Virus record (IMG/VR): IMGVR_UViG_3300045988_182204 | Source of the DNA: a virus | Length of the DNA: 52,672 nt | Reading direction: 5' to 3' (one strand) | In this document: positions 1-52,672 of the stretch, in pieces | Layout of the letters: every line of letters starts with the position of its first letter | How positions within the stretch are numbered: position 1 is the first letter of the stretch | Notes under the pieces: generated by a model | Told to the model about the DNA's origin: nothing | The model's database searches: none | The model's input: the letters and a program-made list of their open reading frames with translations, nothing else | Position numbers and translations under genes: made by a program

Positions 1-99
1 ATCCTGTGTGCCCAACTCCAAGCGTTGTAGACCAAATTATGAACGCTGCAAAGGCTGCTCAGGAAAATGCAGAAAAGGCAGCAGGCAGTGCAAAAAAAG
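1..99. repeat. Terminal duplication (contig closure): identical to 52574-52672
   Basis: Direct comparison of the first 99 nt with the last 99 nt shows an exact match. This implies a circular or terminally redundant molecule of 52,573 bp. Confidence 0.95.
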
Positions 100-5749: not shown

Positions 5750-6004
5750 ATGGGTGGAAGCGGAAGCTCGAGCGGCAAGGGTGGCTCTTCTGGTGGAGCA
5801 GGAAAAATTGCTCTGTCCCAGATTGAAGTCAACAAGAATGAGTACCTATTCTCCTGGGGCAAAAGACCTTCTGGCCGTGGTGACTGGGCATTTGACATTG
5901 GTGGCAAAACATATTTCTTCAATGGAACTTATCCAGAAGCTGCTAAAAAAGCCAAGAAGAAAGCACAAGAAGAAGGACAAAGGCGAATAAAAGTTCTACA
6001 ATAA
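5750..6004 (+). CDS. Small Gly-rich-leader protein, paralogue 1 (84 aa)
   Basis: Starts MGGSGSSSGKGG, sharing its first 12 aa with the next ORF; SD AAGCGAGG; basic C-terminus. Confidence 0.65.
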   Translation: MGGSGSSSGKGGSSGGAGKIALSQIEVNKNEYLFSWGKRPSGRGDWAFDIGGKTYFFNGTYPEAAKKAKKKAQEEGQRRIKVLQ

Positions 6005-6020
6005 TAAGGAGGATACAATC

Positions 6021-6368
6021 ATGGGTGGTTCTGGTTCTAGTTCCGGCAAGGGTGGCGGAGCAGGTGGTGTATCTGCAATGCGTACACGTGCAGAAATTGA
6101 AAATGAAGTCAATAACATTAAATATCGTACATCTAGAGGAGTTTCTAGTGCGGAGTACGATAATGGCAATACATATGTAGAAAGCAGCATTCGCAAAACC
6201 TCTGATGGATATAGAGCGGATGTGTATGCTGATAGTGGGCAAACTCACTATTATAAGACACTGTCTACTCAAGCGAAAGCAAAAAGTTGGGCAAAAGGCA
6301 CTATTTCGGATATTGCTTATGAAGATGAGCGTAAAACGTATGAGATGACTAAAAAGAGAAGAAGGTGA
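6021..6368 (+). CDS. Small Gly-rich-leader protein, paralogue 2 (115 aa)
   Basis: Starts MGGSGSSSGKGG with different codons from paralogue 1; SD AAGGAGG. Confidence 0.65.
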   Translation: MGGSGSSSGKGGGAGGVSAMRTRAEIENEVNNIKYRTSRGVSSAEYDNGNTYVESSIRKTSDGYRADVYADSGQTHYYKTLSTQAKAKSWAKGTISDIAYEDERKTYEMTKKRRR

Positions 6369-26676: not shown

Positions 26677-27074
26677 TCATATTCCTCCAGCATGGATTCA
26701 ATAGTTGTATTGTTTTTCGATGACGCGACAAAAGCAATCATCTTGTCACTGTATTCATGAAGAAAGTGAGGAAGAATTGAACCATCCCTCCGAAAGACAA
26801 TCTTAATGTCATCTATGGTATATGCAACCATTACAAGGGCACCAGCTTTTTGCCAGCGCAAAAGATCATACAGTTGCTTCTTGCTGGGTACATTCCCATG
26901 ATCAGGAACTTTCAGCTCAATGCGGAAAGACCTGCCATTGATACACCCATTGATGTCTGCTCTGCCAGACTGAGCACTATTCCCCGACACATTCTCAGCA
27001 ACACATCCATTGATGCTGTTAAGGTACACAAGAGCCTGTGACTGAAAAGATGATTCCTTTGGCATGTAGATCAA
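26673..27074 (-). CDS. VRR-NUC domain nuclease
   Basis: GRADINGCINGRSFRIELKVP...SKKQ (D...ExK...Q) matches the VRR-NUC pattern. Confidence 0.7.
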   Translation of the reverse strand: MIYMPKESSFQSQALVYLNSINGCVAENVSGNSAQSGRADINGCINGRSFRIELKVPDHGNVPSKKQLYDLLRWQKAGALVMVAYTIDDIKIVFRRDGSILPHFLHEYSDKMIAFVASSKNNTTIESMLEEYE

Positions 27075-27499
27075 ACTCCTTTCTTCAAGAACTCTCCATA
27101 GGATTTGTGAATGGCAATATTCAGATCCTTGTGATTGACATCAAGTCTATGACACCAATAGAGAAAGTCTTGTTCTACTGGAATTGCCTTGTCATCAATG
27201 TAAAGGTCAGCGAAAACTTTCCTTGTGTCATTGTTGTAGAGTGCAATCACCTCAGGAATATTTGTATTGATTGCATCAAATACAATTCCTTTCTGGTGAC
27301 AATAGGAGACAGCATCAATGAGATTTTTACCATCTCTGGATGTCCAAAGAATCACTCGTATGTCCTGTGCCTGAAGAGCTTTTACAAGACTGAACATTCC
27401 CATATTGGGCTCCCCAATCTCGGGGAATTTGTCTTCTACCAAAGTACCATCAAAGTCGATAGCAACAATCTTCGGCAGATCATTGTTTGTTTTGTTCAT
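27071..27499 (-). CDS. HAD-superfamily phosphatase (nucleotidase-like)
   Basis: Motif I VAIDFDGTL, then ILWTSR and YIDDKA; 142 aa. Confidence 0.65.
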   Translation of the reverse strand: MNKTNNDLPKIVAIDFDGTLVEDKFPEIGEPNMGMFSLVKALQAQDIRVILWTSRDGKNLIDAVSYCHQKGIVFDAINTNIPEVIALYNNDTRKVFADLYIDDKAIPVEQDFLYWCHRLDVNHKDLNIAIHKSYGEFLKKGV

Positions 27500-27872
27500 A
27501 TTTGATAGTCTCCTCTTTCATGTGGAGTGAAGTCCAATTTTTTATGACCCCATCCATAGGAAGTGCTGCATGTCCAAGAGTTGGACTGAATAACTCAAAG
27601 TATCTATCTTGATATGCGATGTATATGGCTTTCTTTACATATTCTACATCGCTCTTCCGAGCCATTTTGAATGTAAGATCGAAATCTTCTTTGCACCATT
27701 TTCGGATCCAAACACTGATGTCAAACCCATCAGTGTTGGTTGCTTTTGAGAATGCATCCCAGACTTCTACTGGAACATAGCAAAAATGAATCCAAATGAT
27801 CCCTTGATCACTTATGACTTTGGACAGGACTTTCCTGTACACCGCTTTCGAGTTTGGGCTTCTGTGTCTCAT
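27480..27872 (-). CDS. Hypothetical protein (130 aa)
   Basis: ATG 27872 follows GGAGGG; overlaps the 3' end of the upstream gene; no motif recognised. Confidence 0.5.
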   Translation of the reverse strand: MRHRSPNSKAVYRKVLSKVISDQGIIWIHFCYVPVEVWDAFSKATNTDGFDISVWIRKWCKEDFDLTFKMARKSDVEYVKKAIYIAYQDRYFELFSPTLGHAALPMDGVIKNWTSLHMKEETIKYEQNKQ

Positions 27873-28674
27873 TTCCACCCTCCAGAGTCTTCTCGCCGTC
27901 TGGCAAGTTGCGCTCGTAGATATGTAGCGAACCTGCCTGATGAGTGTATGTACCAACTCCAACACCCAAGGTCATTGCCATCATCACCTGCATGGAGCAG
28001 AAGCTAAACATGTCATAGGGTACACCAGTCCAGACATCATTGGAGCGCATTGTTGTTGTCAGGTTAAGGCGACCGTCACGGAGCAAGAACTGGAGTGACA
28101 AGGTACACGGAGTATCTTTGGTTGCATCACTCATGGGTCGAGGATTTTTGATATGAATGACTGCTTGGCGACTATTTGGGTCAGCCTTGAGACGATTGAT
28201 CACATCCTGCCACTGATCAAACCCATAGAACTGCTTAATCTTGTGACCATAGCAGCTGTTGACCGTCTCTCCATCGTCACTCATGCGATCCCAAGCAGAG
28301 CTGAAGAGGCTAATGTCTTTGAGTCTGTTAGACCCAGAAAGATACCACAACAACTCTCCGACAGCATATCGCATGGGCATCTTGCGAGCTTCACTCTTGA
28401 CAATCATGCGAGTTGGGTCTTTGACAACGGTGATGGCGTTGATAACCTCAGCAGCCACAGCTCCGTCTCGAGAAGCAGAAGTTCTCTTGTTCATACGATG
28501 CTGAGCCAACAGAACAGCAAACCAATACTCCCATGCGCTGTTGACATCACTCACAACTACATAATTGTCAATGTCAGCATCGCCACACATACGACTGCTC
28601 TTGTTGTAAAGGGATGCGAGTTTGTACTCTTTTACAACATTATTGAAGTCTTCCACATTAAACAGCAAGCTCAT
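27808..28674 (-). CDS. ThyA-superfamily enzyme, deoxycytidylate 5-hydroxymethyltransferase-like (T4 gp42-like)
   Basis: AVGELLWYLSGSN, NSCYGHKI, DQWQDVINRLKADPNSRQAVI, catalytic Cys in TPCTLSLQF, MRSNDVWTGVPYDMF and GSLHIYERN. The Asn of ThyA PFNI aligns with Asp, as at T4 gp42 D179 (alignment by eye). Confidence 0.7.
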   Translation of the reverse strand: MSLLFNVEDFNNVVKEYKLASLYNKSSRMCGDADIDNYVVVSDVNSAWEYWFAVLLAQHRMNKRTSASRDGAVAAEVINAITVVKDPTRMIVKSEARKMPMRYAVGELLWYLSGSNRLKDISLFSSAWDRMSDDGETVNSCYGHKIKQFYGFDQWQDVINRLKADPNSRQAVIHIKNPRPMSDATKDTPCTLSLQFLLRDGRLNLTTTMRSNDVWTGVPYDMFSFCSMQVMMAMTLGVGVGTYTHQAGSLHIYERNLPDGEKTLEGGNETQKPKLESGVQESPVQSHK

Positions 28675-28675
28675 T

Positions 28676-29101
28676 TCAGGTCCTCCAAATTTCAATCTGC
28701 AAAGTTGAGTTTCCCATGACTTCGTCAAATCTCTTCATCAGTTCTTTGACAGGATACATGGGAGTTTCGTTGCGCTTGTTAAGGCGCTCTTCGATAGTCT
28801 TTTCTTGAGCGGTGACATAGATCACCTTTGCACCACGAGCAAGCATAGCAATCTCCAGATGATAGAGATCTTCTTTGCTCAGTTTCCGATCCTCTGGGGC
28901 TTGATAAACGAACTGACCATAGCAGAACCGATCGGCAATCACATTCTCACTTGTGGCTGCATCGAGAATATGATGGAAATAGCGATAGTCATTTGGAGTG
29001 TCCTTTGTACAATGGATAATACGTGCGTTGAGAATTCTTGCGAGCTTTCTGGCGATGGTACTTTTGCCAACGCCATCAACTCCTTCCAATACAATGAGCA
29101 T
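28676..29101 (-). CDS. Small thymidylate-kinase-like dNMP kinase (141 aa)
   Basis: P-loop LIVLEGVDGVGKST and a DR motif (ADRFCYGQFVY); shorter than cellular Tmk. Confidence 0.7.
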   Translation of the reverse strand: MLIVLEGVDGVGKSTIARKLARILNARIIHCTKDTPNDYRYFHHILDAATSENVIADRFCYGQFVYQAPEDRKLSKEDLYHLEIAMLARGAKVIYVTAQEKTIEERLNKRNETPMYPVKELMKRFDEVMGNSTLQIEIWRT

Positions 29102-29257: not shown

Positions 29258-30247
29258 TTACTCCTCCCAAGGACGTTTGTAAAGAGTTTTGCACAAATGT
29301 TTATTGTTTTTCGAAATGCTTCGAGCATAGTTCAGGATCTTGTCATTGGGCTCTGGTACTTCCTCTTCTGCAGGAATATGACCACCTCTAGGCAACAACC
29401 CAACGCGATGACTCATAGCATTGCATCCATAGCAGGGCTTGAAACTTCGCTCACCTGCATACAGAAGAATCCGAGCAGCTTCAAACCGTTTGCTGTACCA
29501 AATGTCCTCAATATTTTGCTCCATGATATTGCCAATTGGGTATTCACCACGGAAGTCATTACAGCAGATCGCCACAGAACCATCGTAGCGGATCGCCAGC
29601 TCTCTGAAAGGACGAGCGCACCGTTTACCTTGATAAGACATATCAAGGGGTCCAGCTGCTCCACAGTGGTTGCACAGATGACGATTGATAGCTTTCTCTT
29701 TCTGAATCGGGGGGTTGAACAACACTCGGAACCCATTTGGATTTGTACTGTACAAAGGAACCTTTCGTGCCAGATGCTCAATCTTCAGATCAGGTACATC
29801 TTGAATAGCATCTTCAATCGTTCGAGCATCGCCTTTGTCGGAATAGTAGTCAATGATCAAATCGTTAAGGCCAGCATCTCTCAGAGCATATACTCGCTCA
29901 ATGATGGTTTTCTGGTCTGCAACCATGCCAAACCCATTGACAATGCCGTAACCATTGCTCATCATGGACATAACGGTGTTGGGAAAAGTCTTTCTGAACA
30001 GCTTGATTATTCTAACTGCATTTGGGTTAAGGGTTGGTTCCCCATGCATAGAAAAAATGATTCTACTGTGCCAGTGCACACGCTTGATCTCAGCAATAAT
30101 TCGCTCTGCAGTTTCCTTCTTCATACGATACCAAGGTTGAGTGCCTTTCTCTCGCATACCACGAAGACCACAGAATTTGCATCCCAGATTGCAACCCTCA
30201 TTCAGCTCAATCTGAATAGAATACGGTGGACTCTGTTTTCTTGACAT
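29258..30247 (-). CDS. Radical SAM enzyme with SPASM/twitch-type C-terminal Cys cluster
   Basis: CX3CX2C (CNLGCKFC); C-terminal CNHC, C-x12-G-x4-C-C (CARPFRELAIRYDGSVAICC) and CYGC. ATG 30247 follows GGGAGGAG. Confidence 0.8.
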   Translation of the reverse strand: MSRKQSPPYSIQIELNEGCNLGCKFCGLRGMREKGTQPWYRMKKETAERIIAEIKRVHWHSRIIFSMHGEPTLNPNAVRIIKLFRKTFPNTVMSMMSNGYGIVNGFGMVADQKTIIERVYALRDAGLNDLIIDYYSDKGDARTIEDAIQDVPDLKIEHLARKVPLYSTNPNGFRVLFNPPIQKEKAINRHLCNHCGAAGPLDMSYQGKRCARPFRELAIRYDGSVAICCNDFRGEYPIGNIMEQNIEDIWYSKRFEAARILLYAGERSFKPCYGCNAMSHRVGLLPRGGHIPAEEEVPEPNDKILNYARSISKNNKHLCKTLYKRPWEE

Positions 30248-30248
30248 G

Positions 30249-30440
30249 TTACTCCTCCCATTCGCAGTTAAATATTGTTTTGTTGATTTTGCATTCAATA
30301 TTGACTTCAAACACATTAAGCGGGAGTTCGATCTTACCCACAAATGCATATTTGCAAATTTCTTTCAGTTCGCAGGCTGTACATGGCATGAGTTCGTGAT
30401 GCCGTTCCACAAGATCTGTCCTATGTTTATTTGATGCCAT
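30249..30440 (-). CDS. Small Cys-containing protein (63 aa)
   Basis: MASNKHRTDLVERHHELMPCTACELKEICKY...IECK...NCEWEE; lies immediately upstream of the radical SAM gene. Confidence 0.5.
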   Translation of the reverse strand: MASNKHRTDLVERHHELMPCTACELKEICKYAFVGKIELPLNVFEVNIECKINKTIFNCEWEE

Positions 30441-30613: not shown

Positions 30614-31561
30614 CTATTCCTCCCAGAAACATTTAATTCGTTTGCTGCCATGGATTTTATGATAAGCTGTCCAATTTATGTCTCCCCACATATAGTCGCC
30701 ATCAGCATCCCTGAAGCTGGTTCGCAGATAATCCTTGATTGGGTATTTCTGCAACATATTGTACTCATATTGATGAAGTTCTTTTTCTGTCTCCGGAGTA
30801 CGAATAACACTGTCACATTTCTCACTCACATAGTCATAGGTCAGGCAAGGAATGTTGAAGCAGTGACCACCATTGGCAAGAATAACAGCGCAGAACCCAA
30901 TGTCATCACCGTGACGATCAAAGATCATATCACGATCAATTTTTGCTTTATAAAGACCCTTTACATTTATCAATGTAACCTGGCGAGGGGTTGGACCAGA
31001 GTCAATGATGTATTTCAGCTTGGAATTTTCAACATGCTGGGACATACGTTGACGACGAATGTTACCCAAATAGACCTTTGGATATGTCTTGAAAACTTCT
31101 TTGCCAATGACACCAGCCATTGTAAGAACCTTTTGCTCCAGCAGAGGATCTGCTTCTCTGTCAGCATTGATTGCATGCTTTGAGCAAGGATTCCCTGTTC
31201 CAGAACACCCATCATACATGTATGCAAGGTTTCGAATGTCATCGTCCATGTCGATGATCATTGAATATTTGTGCTCAGCGGCATACTCATAGATGAACTG
31301 ACGAGTACTGGCCAACCCATTGATTGGCAGGTGAAAGTCTTTTGCGATAGGTAGAATATGAAGATTTGGATTTGCCTTTCGATAAGCTTTTGCTTGCTCC
31401 GGACGAACAACAATATGAATCTTTTCAAGTGCTTCTGGCTCAAAGTTTTTGAACATTTCAGCAGTTACAAAATGAGGTCTGTTGTACGACGGAACAAAAA
31501 TGTGAGGAAGTTGATTCACAGACAAACTGTTAAGGTGTCTGTACATTTCTTGTTTTTTCAT
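30614..31561 (-). CDS. GT-A-fold glycosyltransferase-like protein (possible DNA-base glycosyltransferase)
   Basis: N-terminal IFVPSYNRP (GT2-like) and the DXD-type acidic motif MIIDMDDDI; 315 aa. Confidence 0.55.
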   Translation of the reverse strand: MKKQEMYRHLNSLSVNQLPHIFVPSYNRPHFVTAEMFKNFEPEALEKIHIVVRPEQAKAYRKANPNLHILPIAKDFHLPINGLASTRQFIYEYAAEHKYSMIIDMDDDIRNLAYMYDGCSGTGNPCSKHAINADREADPLLEQKVLTMAGVIGKEVFKTYPKVYLGNIRRQRMSQHVENSKLKYIIDSGPTPRQVTLINVKGLYKAKIDRDMIFDRHGDDIGFCAVILANGGHCFNIPCLTYDYVSEKCDSVIRTPETEKELHQYEYNMLQKYPIKDYLRTSFRDADGDYMWGDINWTAYHKIHGSKRIKCFWEE

Positions 31562-31627: not shown

Positions 31628-32320
31628 TTATTCCTCTTCCCAATCGTCATCGTCGTCCTCGTCATCTTCTTCGACGGGTTCCGGCTTCTTCTTTGCTTTC
31701 TTGGCAGGAGCTTTCTTTGCAGGGGATTTCTTGGGAGCAGGTTTTTCCTCTTCTTCAGAGTCATCGTCGTCCTCGTCCCAATCACTGTCCTCGTCTTCCT
31801 CAGGATCAGGCTTCTTCTTTGCTGCAGCTTTCTTTGCTACAGGCTTCTTCTTGGGCTTCGGAGCTTCCTCTTCGACTTCCTCCTCGTCCTCGGAAACATC
31901 TTCCTCGTCGAAGCTGTCCTCATCCTCATCGTCATCATCCGACTTGGCTGCACCAGGCTTCAGATAGTCACTCACTCGAGCACGGATCTGACCATTGTAC
32001 TCTTCATGGGTGACATTGATATTCAGAGACTTACCGATCATATTGTCCAGATCAACAGCAACCTTTCCGTCACACTTCATGCCGATGATCTGCAGCAGAG
32101 ACTTGAACTTCCACAGAGCCTTGTCGGTGAGAACCAGATTGTCAAATACCTTGACACCCTTGTCATCACCGGAAAGGATCTCAAAGGCAACCTGCAGCAT
32201 GGGGTCACCACCCTGAGTATTCTTCTCCTGGATGTCAGAGATCTTGACATGATGAACACCCTCGCTTGCGCGCTGGAATGCCTCAACATTGGTAAAATCG
32301 ATTTTAACTTTGCGTGCCAT
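31628..32320 (-). CDS. DUF669-like ssDNA-binding-type protein with a long Lys/Ala + polyacidic tail
   Basis: The N-terminal ~120 aa fit DUF669 and sit next to an AAA_24 ATPase. The C-terminal ~110 aa alternate KKPVAKKAAAKKKP-type and DEDDE-type blocks. Confidence 0.6.
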   Translation of the reverse strand: MARKVKIDFTNVEAFQRASEGVHHVKISDIQEKNTQGGDPMLQVAFEILSGDDKGVKVFDNLVLTDKALWKFKSLLQIIGMKCDGKVAVDLDNMIGKSLNINVTHEEYNGQIRARVSDYLKPGAAKSDDDDEDEDSFDEEDVSEDEEEVEEEAPKPKKKPVAKKAAAKKKPDPEEDEDSDWDEDDDDSEEEEKPAPKKSPAKKAPAKKAKKKPEPVEEDDEDDDDDWEEE

Positions 32321-32359
32321 AATAGATACCTCCAAAATAGTGTTATATTTCCAAAGGCA

Positions 32360-34137: not shown

Positions 34138-34214
34138 TGGTCGAGATGACAGGACTCGAACCTGCGACATCTTGGTCCCAAACCAAGCATTCTACCAATC
34201 TGAATTACATCTCG
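34138..34214 (-). tRNA. tRNA-Pro (anticodon TGG), CCA encoded
   Basis: Hand-folded cloverleaf: acceptor CGAGATG/CATCTCG, anticodon arm CTTGG-TTTGGGA-CCAAG, T arm GCAGG-TTCGAGT-CCTGT, 3' ACCA. Confidence 0.8.
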
Positions 34215-34509: not shown

Positions 34510-34586
34510 TGGTGCTAGAGACAGGGTTCGAACCTGCAACCTCTTGATTACAAATCAACTGCTCTACCCATTAGAGCTACTCTAGC
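34510..34586 (-). tRNA. tRNA-Thr (anticodon TGT), CCA encoded
   Basis: Hand-folded: acceptor GCTAGAG/CTCTAGC, D arm GCTC-TAATGGGTA-GAGC, anticodon loop TTTGTAA, T arm GCAGG-TTCGAAC-CCTGT. There is one mismatch at the top of the anticodon stem. Confidence 0.75.
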
Positions 34587-38131: not shown

Positions 38132-38689
38132 TCAAACACCCATGCATTGAGAGGCATACATATCAGCAGTATGCGTGTAGAGCACATTAGGATAAGCACA
38201 ACAAGCAGCAGAATATCCTTTCCAATACTTTTCACCCTCAAAGGCACCCATGTGCCAGCGAATGCACATCAGTTCTTCAAAAGTGAGCTCAAGGAACTGC
38301 TGAATCAAAGCTACACTGGCACTGCCATGCCCAGGGAGAATCACATTTTCGGTATGTGTAAAGGTCCCGTCTTCTTGCTTGGTATACAATTTTGTCTTAC
38401 AATAGTCATGCAGCATACCAACAATATATGGGGATTCTTTTCGCTCCCAGTGAAGCCTCAGGCTCTGTGTGTAATCTACAAGTTGACGTGTTACAGCAAA
38501 TGAATGATCAAAAAGACCACCCTCATAATTGCCATGATGAGAAGCTGCTGCTGGAGCAGTGAAGAACCCATCTTTTTCAAGCTGCTGAAGAACCCCTGTA
38601 TTGTATGGACGAGGCATATAACCTGTGAATAGAGCAATGCGTTCTTCTTTGGTTCTGTCAAACACCATATTCTTTTTTGCTGAAGTCAT
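38132..38689 (-). CDS. HD-domain phosphohydrolase
   Basis: HHGNYEGGLFDHSFAV and MLHDYCK (H...HD...D pattern). Confidence 0.7.
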   Translation of the reverse strand: MTSAKKNMVFDRTKEERIALFTGYMPRPYNTGVLQQLEKDGFFTAPAAASHHGNYEGGLFDHSFAVTRQLVDYTQSLRLHWERKESPYIVGMLHDYCKTKLYTKQEDGTFTHTENVILPGHGSASVALIQQFLELTFEELMCIRWHMGAFEGEKYWKGYSAACCAYPNVLYTHTADMYASQCMGV

Positions 38690-40642: not shown

Positions 40643-40999
40643 CTATTTCATTGTTACTGTGCGATCCTCAATCGTGCGCTGCATGCTTGTACTGCTGTCA
40701 AGCCAACGCTGTACTCGTTCTGTCTTTGCCAGCTTTCTAGCATCAACCTCCTCTTGGTTAAGGTTGAAGATGGCTTTGACATGATGAAGAATAATCTCCA
40801 CATCAGCAACCTCATCAATTGCTTTCTGATGCAGGTTGAGCTGAGCTTCATATTCAGAATCATATCGAGGAAACTTTGCCAACACACATGCTAGCTCATT
40901 AAGCTCTTCAATGGCAACCAAAATCTGATTTTTGTTACCATACACATCACGAGCTTTGGCAAGTGTTGTGACAATGTAATCCGCCTGTTCTTGGGTCAT
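40643..40999 (-). CDS. MazG-like all-alpha NTP pyrophosphohydrolase
   Basis: EExxE / ExxD metal motifs (VAIEELNELACVL and IDEVADVEIIL); 118 aa. Confidence 0.65.
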   Translation of the reverse strand: MTQEQADYIVTTLAKARDVYGNKNQILVAIEELNELACVLAKFPRYDSEYEAQLNLHQKAIDEVADVEIILHHVKAIFNLNQEEVDARKLAKTERVQRWLDSSTSMQRTIEDRTVTMK

Positions 41000-41010
41000 G
41001 TAAGATCACC

Positions 41011-41487
41011 TCAATTCGTTGCGTCTGGAGCATCCCAGTTGGCCACTTGAACACTTTTTACACCATTATATGCAAAGATTTGTTCAGTTTCTTCACTGAT
41101 ATATTGCTTGCGTCCATAATAGACCTCTGTGATTCCTGCAGCAACAATAGCACGCGCACAGGCTTCACAAGGATACCGTGTTACATAGATTCGTCCACCT
41201 CGTGCAGGTCTCTCCAAATGAGCGATGGCGTCGATCTCGCTATGAACAGCACGACAATCTGCAGGTCCACGATGGGTCTTATCGTTGTTGCCATACTTCT
41301 TGATACGCAAGCAGCCCTCGAACTGACAAAGATTTGGGATTGTTGCATTTGCTCCAAAAGAGAGAATTCTTCCATGCTTATCTGTGATACAAGATCCAAC
41401 AGACACTTTCAAGCAACCAGATCTTGCCTCTGCATAAGTCTGAGCCATGTCAAGATATCTTTTGACAGGCATCTGCTCATTTGCCAT
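41011..41487 (-). CDS. dCMP (deoxycytidylate) deaminase
   Basis: Zinc motifs VHSEIDAI and PCEACARAI; ATG 41487 follows AGAGGAA. Confidence 0.8.
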   Translation of the reverse strand: MANEQMPVKRYLDMAQTYAEARSGCLKVSVGSCITDKHGRILSFGANATIPNLCQFEGCLRIKKYGNNDKTHRGPADCRAVHSEIDAIAHLERPARGGRIYVTRYPCEACARAIVAAGITEVYYGRKQYISEETEQIFAYNGVKSVQVANWDAPDATN

Positions 41488-41674
41488 TATTGTTCCTCTT
41501 TTCTTGTTCCTTTTGTTCACGACGAGCTTTCTCACGACGAGCTGCTCGGCACTCACTGCAATGGGTAAAAGGCTTCAGCCCACGAGTTTCGAGCCAAGCC
41601 AGCTCGTTGTCAGAGATAGAAAAAGGACGATTGCAGGTCTTACAGATCCGCTGCTGACGATTGTTTTCTGCCAT
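41477..41674 (-). CDS. Zinc-ribbon protein (65 aa)
   Basis: CKTCNRPF...CSECR followed by a basic tail (RREKARREQKEQEKR). Confidence 0.55.
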   Translation of the reverse strand: MAENNRQQRICKTCNRPFSISDNELAWLETRGLKPFTHCSECRAARREKARREQKEQEKRNNNGK

Positions 41675-41688
41675 GATAAATACCTCCA

Positions 41689-42699
41689 TTATTTGTAAAT
41701 GTATTTGACACGAGGACGACCAGTGCCCTCGATTGTCCGAATGTATTTGCAGAATTCACACATACAGTTCTCCAAACACATAACACTGAAGAACCGATCT
41801 TCTTGAGGCAAATCTACAAAGAGTCTACCAGCCCAAAAAGGTGGATGAACTTCGTTGAAGATTTCATCTATGTTGTCCGCGAGCCAGAACAGAGCTTCTT
41901 CATGAGTGAGCCCATTGTAGTCGTCAAACAACTTGTTAAGGCCTTTTTTGCATCCTGGTCCAGCTACAACGAACTCATTCTCACTAAATGGAAACTCTTC
42001 TATATAGGTTAAATCAACAAAGATTTGATATGCCAAAAAATCTGCAAAGCCTTGGATCTCTTTTATGGCTTCAAATGCAACCTTTTGGTCACTGGCACTT
42101 AAGAGTTTTTCAACGGTGTTGTGCTCCTTGAGCCATGGACCGATATGGAATACTCGTAAAGGTATATCTTGCTCCACACAGTCACTGAAATGATCAATGT
42201 CTGCATATCTCCAGGCCTGTTTTGTGCCACCCTGATTGTATGCCGAAGACCACCACTTGCGGTCAGAATCTTCTGTAACTAACTGCTTGTAGATTGGTCG
42301 AACCTGTTCTTTCATCTGCGAGGAGTAAAGGCTCTTTGCTGGCCATGGTCCACCAAGATCCTTCATTGTATCCCAGTTGTTCCATGCTCGGAAGTAGAAG
42401 CTATTGACAATCTTATCCTCTATAGATAGACATGGATTGGTACTGATATTTTTGATGAGATATTGGCTCTGACGATCATGCTCACGACGAATGTTGCAGA
42501 ACTTGTACTGTAACAGGATCGGGTTGTTTGTCCATGGTGCTTTTTGCTTCAAGAAGTCTTTGCGAATATGAATCTTGTAGCGCTCTGTTACAAAGTCATA
42601 GAAGTGTTTGACTGCAACGGCATTCAATTTGGGTTTGGCTTCCAGAATCTTTTGCTGATTCACACCGCAGTATTTTACATCTGCTCTTTTATTTTTCAT
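41689..42699 (-). CDS. Putative DNA base hypermodification protein (aGPT-pyrophosphorylase-like family)
   Basis: PWTNNPILLQYKFCNIRREHDRQSQYL and VVAGPGCKKGLNKLF resemble the PWT.DpIL..yrFcNvyRe.DR.T and GPGa.RGL motifs I recall for this family. This needs HMM confirmation. Confidence 0.45.
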   Translation of the reverse strand: MKNKRADVKYCGVNQQKILEAKPKLNAVAVKHFYDFVTERYKIHIRKDFLKQKAPWTNNPILLQYKFCNIRREHDRQSQYLIKNISTNPCLSIEDKIVNSFYFRAWNNWDTMKDLGGPWPAKSLYSSQMKEQVRPIYKQLVTEDSDRKWWSSAYNQGGTKQAWRYADIDHFSDCVEQDIPLRVFHIGPWLKEHNTVEKLLSASDQKVAFEAIKEIQGFADFLAYQIFVDLTYIEEFPFSENEFVVAGPGCKKGLNKLFDDYNGLTHEEALFWLADNIDEIFNEVHPPFWAGRLFVDLPQEDRFFSVMCLENCMCEFCKYIRTIEGTGRPRVKYIYK

Positions 42700-42901
42700 T
42701 GGCTTTTCTCCTACAATACTGCTCTAAATGGGCCAATATGGATAATCCCATGAAACATGCCATAGGAATAAGATCTTCACCACCAATTGCTTTATATCCT
42801 CGCTGAAGCAGTGCAGCCTCAGCAGCCACCATAGATATATATGGGGTTATAATGAACAACAGAGTGAACAATATTCCAAACAGCTTCTCAAGTACCTTCA
42901 T
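42689..42901 (-). CDS. Small membrane protein (70 aa, two TM helices)
   Basis: FGILFTLLFIITPYISMVAA and LIPMACFMGLSILA. Confidence 0.55.
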   Translation of the reverse strand: MKVLEKLFGILFTLLFIITPYISMVAAEAALLQRGYKAIGGEDLIPMACFMGLSILAHLEQYCRRKANEK

Positions 42902-42902
42902 T

Positions 42903-42931
42903 ATTATACCTCCAAATAGGGCTATTGTAAA
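42903..42931 (-). promoter_or_regulatory. Promoter-like motif (CTCTTTACA-17-TATAAT), function doubtful
   Basis: The motif fits the family, but the -10 ends 1 nt before ATG 42901 and overlaps its SD. Confidence 0.3.
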
Positions 42932-43513: not shown

Positions 43514-43741
43514 TCAAGACCTCCACAATTTTCTGAGTCTGTAATTTATGTGAACGATATCCATCACATCAGAGTGTAGCTCGGAATCAATACTCTTCAA
43601 ACGAACTTTCATGTGCCAACCCACTGTGCTCAGTGGCATATTGAATCGCTCAGCTGTCTCCCTATATGTTGCTAAACTCTTGTTGATGATATATGATGCT
43701 TCATCTAGCACCTGCTGATCAGTGTATCTTCTTTTCTTCAT
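43514..43741 (-). CDS. SpoIIID-like HTH transcriptional regulator (75 aa)
   Basis: ...ETAERFNMPLSTVGWHMKVRLKSIDSELHSDVMDIVHINY parallels B. subtilis SpoIIID (...FGVSKSTVHKDLTERLPEINPDLANEVKEIL...) as I remember it. Confidence 0.5.
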   Translation of the reverse strand: MKKRRYTDQQVLDEASYIINKSLATYRETAERFNMPLSTVGWHMKVRLKSIDSELHSDVMDIVHINYRLRKLWRS

Positions 43742-43751
43742 CTTAAACACC

Positions 43752-48011: not shown

Positions 48012-48536
48012 TCAAAATTTTTGCAGCTCCTGTCTCAGCTTCTTGATCTTGCGCCTGACATTGCACGCTGGAACGCCAATCATGCGAGATATAGCGCTGG
48101 CAGAATATCCTTTGATATGGAGCTTGGCAACTTTGAAAAAGACTGTATCACTTTTACATATATAGTGTATCTGGGTGTAGATGTCAGATATGGCATAGTC
48201 GTCCTGTGGGTCAGGGATGGTGCATTCGATAGGAATTGGAACTGGTTCTTCGTTGCAGATTGTGCTGTTAAGGCTGACCGTCGTTTGGACTTGTCGCTGT
48301 ACCTTGCGCCACTCCATACTGATTACATTAGACATGCATAAAAATGCAAATGAAGAGAACTTTCCTCTCTTGGGTTCATAGAAATGTGCTGCACGGCATA
48401 ATCCAATAGCACAGAGATCGTAATAGTCGTCAGACAGATTGTATTTGTTAAGGTATGAATAGATGAGATTATGGTTATTGGTGACAAGATCTCGCTCTTC
48501 ATCTGTGAGAGTGAATGGTTTCGCTGGTGAGTGCAT
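48012..48536 (-). CDS. Sigma-70-family RNA polymerase sigma factor (regions 2 and 4)
   Basis: Region 2-like DLCAIGLCRAAHFYEPKRGKFSSFAFLCMSNVISMEWRK; region 4 HTH IKGYSASAISRMIGVPACNVRRKIKKLRQEL. It is the first gene of the leftward arm. Confidence 0.8.
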   Translation of the reverse strand: MHSPAKPFTLTDEERDLVTNNHNLIYSYLNKYNLSDDYYDLCAIGLCRAAHFYEPKRGKFSSFAFLCMSNVISMEWRKVQRQVQTTVSLNSTICNEEPVPIPIECTIPDPQDDYAISDIYTQIHYICKSDTVFFKVAKLHIKGYSASAISRMIGVPACNVRRKIKKLRQELQKF

Positions 48537-49604: not shown

Positions 49605-50351
49605 ATGACTGGTGGTGATATAGTGGGTGCTTTTAAGAAAATTGAGGGAAGAAAAGTCTATATTGACTTCACTTTCATCGTTGCTGAAAAAGACTCCTAT
49701 GAGCGCACAATGCGCGAGAACATGCGCAAGGTTCATGCCCGCAACAAGGCATTGAATTTGTTGTTTCCATATCAGCATCTCTTGGGCAAGCGCAGAATTG
49801 TTGAAACTCCTGAAGAAATGCAAGAGTTGTGTGACAAATACTTCGAGTCCTGTAATGGACCTTTACGAGACAAATGGGGCAATGCAGTCACTGACAAGGA
49901 AGGTCATGCAATTATTGTACAGATCAAGCCATACACTATTTCGGGTCTTGCAGCTGCCATTGGCATGAGTACAACAACGCTCAAAAACTATACTTATAAA
50001 AGTTTGGCAGGAACTGTGCATCCCGAGTTTTCCAATGTGATTATGACTGCTCGACAAAAAATCGAGCAATACAGTGAGGAGCAACTCTTCAATCGTGAGG
50101 GTGTGACTGGTGCTGAATTCATGCTGAGAGCTGGATTTCGATGGTCTACGAAGCAAGAGGAGATCGAGATGGCTCGCAATCTTGCAACGATCAAGAAGAT
50201 GCAGCAGGACTATGAATTGCAAAAGAGACAGCTCAAGATCAAGGAACGCCTCATTGAGGGTGAAGATGTTGGCGACAATCAGGTCGTGATCAACATTGTC
50301 CGTGCAAAGCCGAAGAGTAAGAGTAGTGAGGTGATCGATGATGACGAATAA
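49605..50351 (+). CDS. terS: Terminase small subunit (Terminase_4-like)
   Basis: ...ELCDKYFESC...KPYTISGLAAAIGMSTTTLKNY...IMTARQKIEQYSEEQLF...GAEFMLRAGFRW fits the HTH-containing small terminase pattern. The start is uncertain because no ATG has an SD. Confidence 0.7.
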   Translation: MTGGDIVGAFKKIEGRKVYIDFTFIVAEKDSYERTMRENMRKVHARNKALNLLFPYQHLLGKRRIVETPEEMQELCDKYFESCNGPLRDKWGNAVTDKEGHAIIVQIKPYTISGLAAAIGMSTTTLKNYTYKSLAGTVHPEFSNVIMTARQKIEQYSEEQLFNREGVTGAEFMLRAGFRWSTKQEEIEMARNLATIKKMQQDYELQKRQLKIKERLIEGEDVGDNQVVINIVRAKPKSKSSEVIDDDE

Positions 50352-50841
50352 CTGTTCATGTGGCTGCAATAATAATTACAATATCAATTATGAAAAAATT
50401 GCAACGTCAATGCAAACGAAAATCAGCCTTGCTGATCCAAAGGCAATTGTTCCAAAATATGCGACTTCTTGTTCTGCTGGAGCTGATATTTTTGCAAGGA
50501 TCGATGAGGAGATTACTGTTTGGCCAGGGACAAGAGCTTTGATTCCAACAAAGATCAAGATTGCAATTCCCGATGGTTGTTGTGGATTGCTCCTGGGTAG
50601 AAGTGGTCTTGCTCTGAAGTATGGAATCTGTTTGGCAAATGGTGTCGGGCTGATCGACTCTGACTATCGAGGAGAACTCGGTGTCATCTTGCAAAACAAT
50701 GGTGGTGAGCCATTCAAGGTCAAAGATGGCATGAGAATTGCCCAGCTTGTAATTGTGCAATATCAGCAAACGAGATTCAAACAGGATTCTCTCGATGATA
50801 CAATTCGTGGCCAAGGTGGCTTTGGCTCTACAGGTGTTTGA
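50338..50841 (+). CDS. dut: dUTP diphosphatase (trimeric dUTPase)
   Basis: All five motifs are present: SAGADI, GRSGLALKYG, GLIDSDYRGE, RIAQLV, RGQGGFGSTG. There is an unusual 24-aa Asn/Cys-rich N-terminal extension if the start is 50338/50341. Confidence 0.9.
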   Translation: MMTNNCSCGCNNNYNINYEKIATSMQTKISLADPKAIVPKYATSCSAGADIFARIDEEITVWPGTRALIPTKIKIAIPDGCCGLLLGRSGLALKYGICLANGVGLIDSDYRGELGVILQNNGGEPFKVKDGMRIAQLVIVQYQQTRFKQDSLDDTIRGQGGFGSTGV

Positions 50842-52233: not shown

Positions 52234-52672
52234 ATGCAAACAATTACATTGAAAGGTTATGGGACAAATATTCCTCCCTATGAGGCCATAGAGCTTGGCA
52301 CTTATGACAGTTATGGAGTTGAACAACTACAAATCGTGCCATCTCATGGATGGGAGAATCTTTCGATCATTGCCTCTTTCTTTCCACCTTCTGGTGCTGA
52401 GCCTATCAAAGTTGCAGTATTATCTAGTGGAATTATCGATGTTCCTCCAGGAGCAACTGCAAAGCAATCAGGAAAAGGCATTATTGTATTTGCTGGCTAT
52501 AAAGCAAATACTCAACTGATCTCTACAAATGTTGCCTATAACATCAGGGATCACAAAGATATTGCGTCTGGTGATCCTGTGTGCCCAACTCCAAGCGTTG
52601 TAGACCAAATTATGAACGCTGCAAAGGCTGCTCAGGAAAATGCAGAAAAGGCAGCAGGCAGTGCAAAAAAAG
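52234..52672 (+). CDS. Tail fibre protein, 5' part (gene continues across the junction to 2195)
   Basis: ATG at 52234 follows GGTGA. The ORF is open to the window end and in the same frame as ORF 6..2195 once the 99-nt overlap is collapsed. The full gene is 52234..52573 plus 1..2195, about 844 aa. Confidence 0.8.
   Translation, partial: MQTITLKGYGTNIPPYEAIELGTYDSYGVEQLQIVPSHGWENLSIIASFFPPSGAEPIKVAVLSSGIIDVPPGATAKQSGKGIIVFAGYKANTQLISTNVAYNIRDHKDIASGDPVCPTPSVVDQIMNAAKAAQENAEKAAGSAKK
52574..52672. repeat. Terminal duplication (copy of 1-99)
   Basis: Exact 99-nt repeat of the window start. Confidence 0.95.

Follow-up and report, generated by a model that had tools for sequence, protein, structure and literature searches.

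A candidate core cassette for 5-hydroxymethyl-pyrimidine DNA hypermodification in an uncultured phage genome

What might a nucleotide pyrophosphatase, a deaminase, a zinc ribbon and a protein related to DNA-modifying enzymes do side by side in a phage? The question is raised by a 52,672-nucleotide sequence from an uncultured phage (IMG/VR record IMGVR_UViG_3300045988_182204; hereafter the window), in which four consecutive minus-strand open reading frames (ORFs) lie inside positions 40643-42699. They encode a MazG-like protein, a dCMP deaminase, a CxxC...CxxC zinc-ribbon protein and a 336-aa protein, which a first, sequence-only reading of the locus placed in the aGPT-Pplase (alpha-glutamyl/putrescinyl thymine pyrophosphorylase) family of DNA base hypermodification proteins. 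We propose, with a probability of about one half, that the four genes are the core cassette of a pathway for the hypermodification of 5-hydroxymethyl-pyrimidines in DNA. As we read it, the system is one of hydroxymethyl-pyrimidine hypermodification built around clade 1 of that family; it lacks the pairing of kinase and transferase by which every characterised pathway is defined. This arrangement bears on the role of clade 1, and on whether a 'thymidine' toolkit works on cytosine or phages reach 5-hydroxymethyluracil (5hmU) via 5-hydroxymethyl-dCMP (hm-dCMP).

An exact direct repeat of 99 bases occupies the two ends of the window (1-99 and 52574-52672). It indicates an assembly overlap, and hence a complete genome of 52,573 bp that is circular or circularly permuted.

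A PF18723 protein in a conserved cassette

The 336-aa protein (41689..42699, minus strand), which contains both peptides quoted from it by the sequence-only reading, matches the Pfam family PF18723 ('HMUDK_hel') with an E-value of 4.4e-58 and 197.3 bits (cut-off 25). The match spans residues 29-322 and profile positions 3-274 of 281, and PHROG 2396 is matched at 2.8e-77. PF18723 is the family once named aGPT-Pplase clade 1, so the family placement holds. When 41689..42699 was compared with the hypermodification families, PF18723 was the sole Pfam match at E<=10; neither PF18724 (clade 2), clade 3 nor PF18748 was found. NCBIfam gave no match, and neither did sequence and profile searches of PDB sequences, 8z2n among them. 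The older names persist in the databases: a 74%-identical metagenomic relative in nr is named 'Pplase1 alpha-glutamyl/putrescinyl thymine pyrophosphorylase clade 1', and homologs in phage records are labelled 'aGPT-Pplase1 domain' or 'aGPT-pyrophosphorylase clade 1'. The family is large, with 3,082 representatives at E<=1e-3 (50% clustering).

The family names need some care. The 336-aa protein is homologous to gp55 of phage M6 (blastp 1e-11), itself a PF18723 protein, and the C-terminal domain of SP10 gp186 is also a member. PF18724, once clade 2, is now 'ADDT, amino acid:DNA transferase' (hereafter AADT), and is matched by M6 gp51. SP10 gp186C, ViI gp160 and M6 gp51/gp55 were listed as two paralogous 'aG/PT-PPlases' (Lee et al. 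2018, PMC5889632), with an M6 numbering reversed relative to that of Pfam. The present Pfam name of PF18723 suggests a DNA kinase, a candidate function that we rejected: the 336-aa protein has no similarity to the P-loop kinase M6 gp54 and no Walker A motif, and the kinases form the separate family PF18748.

The sequence-only reading had also taken the appending of amino acids or polyamines as the family activity, and this part did not survive. Amino-acid transfer to kinase-phosphorylated 5-hydroxymethyldeoxyuridine belongs to clade 2 only (M6 gp51 and ViI gp247; Lee et al. 2021, PMC8989533); the PF18724/AADT members with transfer activity are these two and PaMx11 gp46. It is therefore very unlikely that the 336-aa protein is an aGPT-pyrophosphorylase or amino acid:DNA transferase that adds an amino acid or polyamine to a phosphorylated 5-hydroxymethyl-pyrimidine. 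Such a role would agree with the superfamily shared by historical naming, with a retained Glu...Cys motif and with a weak fold similarity to the clade-2 enzyme PUGT (both described below). Against it stand the missing PF18724 match, the dispensability of clade 1 for amino-acid transfer in M6 (PMC8989533), the lack of any pyridoxal phosphate-dependent decarboxylase or similar partner among the genes found, and the lack of a PF18748 kinase to make the phosphorylated substrate. A six-frame scan of the complete genome with our own PF18748 and AADT profiles found neither family, in agreement with the earlier remark that no separate 5-hydroxymethylpyrimidine DNA kinase could be seen; the only match to the PF18748 profile was a weak P-loop match (E 0.004) of a thymidylate-kinase (Tmk)-like gene. 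Since the genome encodes neither the kinase nor an AADT, phosphate displacement of the canonical kind cannot proceed here as described.

The association of the four genes was examined in 79 IMG/VR loci with PF18723 relatives (35-72% identity), together with 40 loci holding relatives of a thymidylate-synthase (ThyA) homolog encoded elsewhere in the window. Neighbourhoods of +/-10 kb were fetched and scanned with hidden Markov models built for the analysis; kinase searches used a single iteration of jackhmmer, with matches verified against Pfam. The PF18723 loci were split into 48 mid-size contigs and 31 ViI-like or other large contigs, and a gene was counted as linked if it lay no more than 3 kb from PF18723 on the same strand. 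A dCMP deaminase is linked in 47 of the 48 mid-size contigs and in 1 of the 31 ViI-like or large ones, and a MazG-like gene in 43/48 and 0/31, respectively. An HD hydrolase is linked in 22/48 versus 0/31, and a glycosyltransferase of the TET/JBP-associated (TAGT) family, often directly adjacent, in 14/48 versus 0/31. The linkage of the deaminase and the MazG-like gene indicates that the four genes form a conserved cassette. Their order, as given for the window by the sequence-only reading and borne out by the ORFs and their motifs, is retained in a 61%-identical relative, and the zinc ribbon between PF18723 and the deaminase is kept only in close relatives. In metagenomes, hundreds of close relatives occur on contigs of ~50 kb.

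PF18723 occurs in every well-studied thymidine-hypermodifying phage, namely PhiW-14, SP10, the ViI-like phages, M6 and SH-Ab 15599. Its neighbours there include kinases, transferases, decarboxylases and isomerases, and the window presents a stripped-down setting. The clade 1 proteins of these phages (M6 gp55, the SP10 gp186 C-terminal domain, the PhiW-14 protein and AEW24318 of the ViI-like phage PhaxI) resemble the 336-aa protein at 25-37% identity, with the same conserved residues and a common predicted all-alpha fold (query TM-score, TMq, 0.6-0.9). The surroundings differ. In M6, SP10, PhiW-14 and ViI-like phages, PF18723 is accompanied by a dUMP hydroxymethylase of the Asn type, by a PF18724 transferase and by one or two PF18748 kinases. 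The window has an Asp-type enzyme but neither kinase nor transferase, and in its lineage PF18723 is linked to TAGT, to a deaminase and to a MazG-like NTPase. In the Acinetobacter phage SH-Ab 15599, a dapT phage, the PF18723 gene (L009:8961-9926; L numbers denote our loci) lies immediately upstream of the dUMP hydroxymethylase gene, and term searches of the 2026 paper on the pathway of that phage found no mention of it.

Evidence on catalysis by PF18723

R40, D75 and K318 never vary among 82 diverse PF18723 sequences, and conservation reaches at least 90% at N69, R72, R104, Q225, D229, N311, C314 and E315. All are present in the 336-aa protein, where E310 is also listed among the conserved residues. 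The AlphaFold2 (AF2) model of the protein is all-alpha (pLDDT 89.1, pTM 0.88). In a Foldseek search of BFVD it matched named PF18723 members, the SP10 gp186 (TMq 0.74), PhiW-14 (TMq 0.61) and phiRSL1 proteins, with E-values of 2.6e-12 to 8.6e-7, a probability of 1.00 and TMq of 0.61-0.74. A BFVD protein with an AADT domain was matched weakly (probability 0.99, TMq 0.41), and the top fold match in the PDB is a clade-2 enzyme, PaMx11 gp46 or PUGT (8z2n; E 0.036, probability 0.77).

Profile comparison of PF18723 with AADT by hhalign returned a single segment, which places D301-R302...E310-N311-x-x-C314 on D234-R235...E243-T244-x-x-C247 of AADT. The score of the real pair is 25.9, compared with 11.5-16.9 for controls with reversed or unrelated profiles. 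Under relaxed settings the alignment becomes collinear and also pairs the G-x-G hairpins (G217/G153), which precede the Glu...Cys motif by 93 residues in PF18723 and by 90 in AADT. In the PUGT crystal, Glu243 and Thr244 hold a metal that contacts thymine O4 and Cys247 attacks C6 (PMC11472151); the cysteine and a nearby glutamate are essential in M6 gp51 and ViI gp247 (PMC8989533). Since its Glu...Cys motif aligns with the catalytic Glu243 and Cys247 of the clade-2 enzyme, PF18723 is probably an enzyme. Resemblance to PUGT may extend to a predicted helix-hairpin-helix (HhH)-like helical fold, the G-x-G hairpin and a D-R...E-[TN]-x-x-C motif collinear with the metal ligands and the C6-attacking cysteine. 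This is suggestive, not proof, that clade 1 retains the covalent-catalysis machinery of clade 2.

Several observations weigh against catalysis of the proposed kind. The TM-score between the 336-aa model and PUGT is only ~0.3 (0.28-0.31), there is no significant sequence-profile match (the global hhalign probability is 3.7%), and 1 of 30 column shuffles reached a score of 35.4, above that of the real pair. M6 gp55 is dispensable in vitro, as reactions without it still work (PMC8989533), and no published activity was found for any clade 1 protein. With the kinase missing, it is also hard to see what would serve as the leaving group.

Some of these observations also suit a different role, in which PF18723 would be a non-catalytic helical module that recognises DNA or the modified base and recruits or positions modifying enzymes, a kinase in other phages and TAGT here, on hydroxymethylated DNA. 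The present Pfam name, HMUDK_hel, suggests as much, and the family is fused to a P-loop kinase in SP10 gp186 and in P0145/L050. PF18723 adjoins whichever modifying enzyme a lineage uses, its conserved residues are identical in cytosine-type and uracil-type contexts, and clade 1 is dispensable for product formation in vitro (PMC8989533). The nature of these residues argues the other way: R40, D75, K318, N69, R72, Q225, D229, E310, C314 and E315 are polar, catalytic in type and beyond the usual needs of a scaffold, and in the profile alignment the Glu...Cys motif falls on catalytic residues of AADT. We therefore regard a purely structural module as improbable.

A bolder reading, less likely than not, is that PF18723 is a kinase-independent, cysteine-dependent DNA-base enzyme. 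Together with TAGT, and in the window with a radical-SAM/SPASM enzyme, it could build an undescribed hypermodified pyrimidine, either a new derivative of 5-hydroxymethylcytosine (5hmC) or a base-J-like glycosyl-5hmU made from dCMP via hm-dCMP and hm-dUMP, both in a large group of uncultured phages of ~50 kb and, independently, in cultured Microbacterium phages. If true, this would be the first function for the orphan clade 1 family.

Genes of the cassette and partner genes elsewhere in the genome

The segments IEELNEL and IDEVADV occur in the MazG-like protein (40643..40999, minus strand; 118 aa). No Pfam model matches it, those for MazG included, and its assignment by the sequence-only reading is upheld by PHROG 2245, 'nucleoside triphosphate pyrophosphohydrolase' (3.8e-14), and by its fold. 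The residues E31-E32-x-x-E35 and D62-E63-x-x-D66 are invariant or at least 90% conserved among homologs. In a fold search of the PDB with the AF2 model (pLDDT 91.6), the top matches belong to the MazG family only and include AF1178 pyrophosphatase (probability 1.00), the human and mouse dCTP pyrophosphatase DCTPP1 (0.94-0.98) and iMazG (0.87-1.00 overall). The protein is thus a MazG-like all-alpha NTP pyrophosphatase and a candidate dCTPase. It resembles the dCTPase DCTPP1 at the level of the fold only, and its substrate may be dCTP, dUTP or dTTP.

The deaminase carries the motifs HSE (HxE) and PCEAC (PCxxC). It matches PF00383 (4.8e-14), PHROG 174 (2.2e-31) and the solved dCMP deaminases 2w4l (1.6e-9) and 4p9c (4.4e-7), which bears out its initial assignment. 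The longest ORF covers 41011-41556, and the likely start is the ATG at 41487 behind AAGAGGA, which gives a gene at 41011..41487 (minus strand) and a protein of 158 aa, equal in length to its ortholog in the 61%-identical relative (L003). The zinc-ribbon ORF (41477-41689) has CKTC...CSEC, as first noted; its likely start is the ATG at 41674 behind GGAGG (41477..41674, minus strand; ~65 aa), and profile matches are weak only (zf_Tbcl 1.5e-3).

A hydrophobic 70-aa ORF (42689..42901, minus strand), whose membership of the cassette is uncertain, precedes the PF18723 gene; its stop overlaps the PF18723 start by 11 nt and it has no family match in Pfam or PHROG. Just upstream of it lies the best sigma-70-like promoter match of the region, TTTACA-17-TATAAT (42903..42931, minus strand; a consensus match only, 11/12), which could be the start of the cassette transcription unit. 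Downstream of the MazG-like gene are a primase gene and then the HD hydrolase gene, and no terminator-like site was found on the minus strand between the promoter-like site and 39212.

The other genes of the proposed pathway are located elsewhere. A ThyA homolog (27808..28674, minus strand) has as its best solved relative the CMP hydroxymethylase MilA (3e-36), ahead of a true thymidylate synthase (3e-23). In Escherichia coli numbering, N177D is diagnostic of a dCMP substrate, L143D/E of a non-methyl product and D169N of a 5-hydroxy-dCMP synthase (Lee et al. 2026, PMC13326640). The window protein has L143D, C146, D169 and N177D and so reads D-C-D-D, as do T4 gp42 and MilA, whereas the ThyA-type enzymes of M6, the ViI-like phage SS9 and SH-Ab 15599 read D-C-D-N. 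We therefore predict that it is a dCMP 5-hydroxymethylase; a 5-hydroxy-dCMP synthase of the RB69 gp48 type was rejected, since D169 is kept. Its closest cultured homolog is that of Agathobaculum phage AB434P2 (54% identity).

Between the ThyA homolog and a radical SAM gene, simple ORF calling missed a P-loop nucleotide kinase gene (28676..29101, minus strand; 141 aa; PF02223 6.8e-11). It overlaps the ThyA ORF where the latter had been extended too far, to a TTG; the true ThyA start is probably the ATG at 28674. This Tmk-like protein is likely an hm-dNMP kinase. It was also considered as the missing DNA kinase and rejected, as it is thymidylate-kinase-like, has the DRF...YQ nucleotide-kinase motif and, in L105, adjoins a genuine PF18748 kinase. 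In that locus the PF18748 DNA kinase gene (L105:1830-2864) lies beside the Tmk-like gene, upstream of an Asp-type ThyA gene, and this side-by-side occurrence indicates that the two kinase types are not interchangeable. An additional 148-aa AAA_33 P-loop kinase is encoded in the early region of the 61%-identical relative (L003:5243-5689) and has no counterpart in the window.

Next to one another are a radical SAM/SPASM enzyme (29258..30349, minus strand), for which a tailoring role may be envisaged, and a TAGT-family DNA glycosyltransferase (30614..31561, minus strand; PF20691 1.9e-10, 41.4 bits with a cut-off of 27.5; PHROG 4519 2.9e-24). Similarity between the radical SAM enzyme and M6 gp53 is limited to the CxxxCxxC motif, with no specific relation, and the TAGT protein has no sequence relative in the PDB. 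Family matches also substantiate the three hydrolase genes already named in the sequence-only reading, namely a HAD-type phosphatase of the BT0820 family (27071..27499, minus strand), which always adjoins the ThyA homolog in relatives, an HD-domain phosphohydrolase (38132..38689, minus strand), which lies directly upstream of PF18723 in many relatives and has no significant similarity to M6 gp59, and a trimeric dUTPase (50338..50841, plus strand). The T4-like pool-rerouting set that had been proposed from these genes is plausible and is strengthened by the dCMP-hydroxymethylase signature of the ThyA homolog.

The ThyA proteins of the 40 related loci are Asp-type without exception, and D-C-D-D is read in all 45 homologs of the lineage, but the neighbourhoods vary. 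The genes TAGT, radical SAM, Tmk-like, ThyA and HAD occur together in the window, L089-97 and L116; a PF18748 kinase, TAGT, ThyA and HAD in L098/99; an AADT-like::PF18748 fusion, ThyA and HAD in L100-102; and PF18748, Tmk-like, ThyA and HAD in L105. The contigs of L100 and L101 also carry PF18723 (as L074 and L073). The lineage thus combines a constant core (Asp-type hydroxymethylase, HAD, PF18723, deaminase and MazG-like protein) with a swappable decoration module.

The fusions themselves (L100:7507-9111, L101:7507-9111 and L102:7648-9114) are proteins of 488-534 aa in which an N-terminal domain precedes the PF18748 kinase, directly upstream of the Asp-type ThyA gene. The N-terminal domain of L102 has a weak PF18724/ADDT match (3.3e-5) and keeps E-S-T-L-C; that of L100 has no Pfam match, and in L100 and L101 the Glu-Thr before the conserved Cys is apparently replaced (…AGKLC…). 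Another locus encodes a natural Tmk-like kinase::HAD phosphatase fusion of 279 aa (L059:15132-15971). Both components flank the ThyA homolog in the window, and the fusion suggests that they are a functional pair.

From these family assignments a sequence of steps can be proposed. Before replication, the MazG-like pyrophosphatase, the dUTPase and the HD and HAD hydrolases would turn over canonical dNTPs and dNMPs, the ThyA homolog, with its T4 gp42/MilA signature, would hydroxymethylate dCMP, and the Tmk-like kinase would phosphorylate the hydroxymethylated product. The deaminase may supply dUMP for dTMP synthesis, like T4 cd, or may convert part of the hm-dCMP to hm-dUMP. After replication, TAGT could decorate the 5-hydroxymethyl group in DNA, and the radical-SAM/SPASM enzyme could tailor it. 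PF18723, as a distant paralog of AADT, would flip the modified pyrimidine out of the helix; Cys314, with Glu310/Glu315, would attack C6 and allow chemistry on the C5-CH2-X substituent without a DNA kinase.

The modified base, the host and other features of the genome

Which pyrimidine is modified? Cytosine is favoured by the D-C-D-D signature of the hydroxymethylase, by a gene set that follows the logic of T4, by the dCTPase-like MazG fold and by a cultured phage that lacks the deaminase (Carostasia, below). In the glucosyl-hydroxymethylcytosine pathway of T4 (gp56 dCTPase, gp42, gp1 kinase, cd deaminase and alpha- and beta-glucosyltransferases), the gene-set logic is that of the window: both have an all-alpha NTP pyrophosphatase, an L143D/N177D ThyA homolog, a nucleotide kinase, a dCMP deaminase and a DNA glycosyltransferase. 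The window differs in having a TAGT-family enzyme instead of AGT/BGT and a Tmk-like instead of a gp1-like kinase, and in its PF18723, radical-SAM/SPASM, HAD and HD genes, which T4 is without. P-loop kinases and aG/PT-PPlases also occur in C5-MT/TET clusters that generate 5hmC (Burke et al. 2021, PMC8256090). A further cytosine-context member of PF18723 could be Q56ED1 in BFVD, the 795-aa ORF233c of the T4-like Aeromonas phage 31, whose predicted structure has a PF18723-like fold (E 8.3e-5, TMq 0.59).

An independent, cultured parallel is Microbacterium phage Carostasia, which has a complete genome of 40.4 kb. As in the window, it encodes PF18723 (annotated 'pyrophosphorylase'), a D-C-D-D ThyA homolog, TAGT, a thymidylate kinase and MazG, and has neither PF18748 nor PF18724/AADT. 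Unlike the window, it has no dCMP deaminase and no radical SAM enzyme, its host belongs to an unrelated phylum and its PF18723 protein is only 26% identical. Related SEA-PHAGES genomes are annotated with 'pyrophosphorylase', thymidylate synthase, glycosyltransferase, thymidylate kinase and MazG, and no published DNA chemistry was found for Carostasia or these related phages. The existence of a cultured analogue makes both questions, the role of clade 1 and the identity of the base, experimentally approachable.

Other observations fit poorly with a cytosine derivative. The PF18723 protein of the window is closer to the ViI-like, uracil-type proteins (37%) than to that of Carostasia (26%), and no residue was found that distinguishes PF18723 of cytosine-type from that of uracil-type genomes, the conserved residues all being common to both. 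The tight linkage of the deaminase and the thymidylate-kinase-like character of the kinase fit a 5hmU route. The TAGT family includes the kinetoplastid base-J glucosyltransferase, which acts on 5hmU, so TAGT may not discriminate between 5hmC and 5hmU. PF18748 kinases and AADT-like domains turn up in relatives whose ThyA is likewise Asp-type, and the activity of the tested PF18748 enzyme is confined to 5hmU (PMC6457204).

These points can be assembled into a thymine replacement, the alternative raised by the sequence-only reading. The ThyA homolog would make hm-dCMP, the deaminase would convert it to hm-dUMP, and the Tmk-like kinase and the host NDK would carry this to 5-hydroxymethyl-dUTP, while the MazG-like, HD and HAD proteins would remove dTTP and dTMP. 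TAGT would then glycosylate 5hmU to a base-J-like product, and PF18723 would act as in ViI, M6 and SP10. The combination of hydroxymethylase, deaminase, NTPase, nucleotidase and kinase mirrors the classical set of the Bacillus hmU phages, the kinase lies beside the ThyA gene, and the contrast in deaminase linkage (47/48) is with phages that have a true dUMP hydroxymethylase (1/31). The affinities of the PF18723 protein favour this scheme, as does the 5hmU specificity of the tested members of the PF18748 and AADT families (PMC6457204). Yet no precedent was found for a biosynthetic route from hm-dCMP to hm-dUMP, and the complete genome of Carostasia combines PF18723 with an Asp-type ThyA, TAGT and Tmk in the same way but lacks any deaminase. 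T4 likewise pairs a dCMP hydroxymethylase with a dCMP deaminase, yet makes 5hmC, and the action of kinases and Pplases on 5hmC in TET clusters was inferred by Burke et al. (PMC8256090). A thymine replacement by this route is a real possibility, though less likely than not.

Overall, the chances that the DNA contains a 5hmC-derived base appear roughly evenly balanced, and a glycosylated 5hmC-derived base is somewhat more likely than a 5hmU-derived one, to which we attach a minority share; mixtures or something else make up the remainder. The arrangement itself is unsurprising in principle, given the known combinatorial diversity of such pathways, and it offers a way in to the role of clade 1 and to a possible new base. 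New DNA-base chemistries are relevant to the resistance of phages to restriction and CRISPR and to enzymatic labelling of 5hmC and 5hmU.

The phage probably infects Clostridia. A SpoIIID-like regulator (43514-43750, minus strand) and a sigma-70 region-2-like protein (48012-48536, minus strand) point to a host in the Firmicutes (Clostridia); Agathobaculum and related Clostridia are candidates.

The replication module contains two tRNA genes, tRNA-Pro(tgg) (34138-34214, minus strand) and tRNA-Thr(tgt) (34510-34586, minus strand). The only megablast match of the region was the tRNA-Pro of large mycobacteriophages, with which that of the window shares 88% identity. A DUF669 protein (31628-32335, minus strand), probably similar to single-stranded DNA-binding proteins, has a low-complexity tail of ~110 residues rich in Asp, Glu and Lys. 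In the structural module, near the portal and terminase genes, two tandem paralogous small ORFs (5750-6004 and 6021-6368, plus strand) both start with MGGSGSSSGKGG… and have Gly/Ser-rich N-termini.

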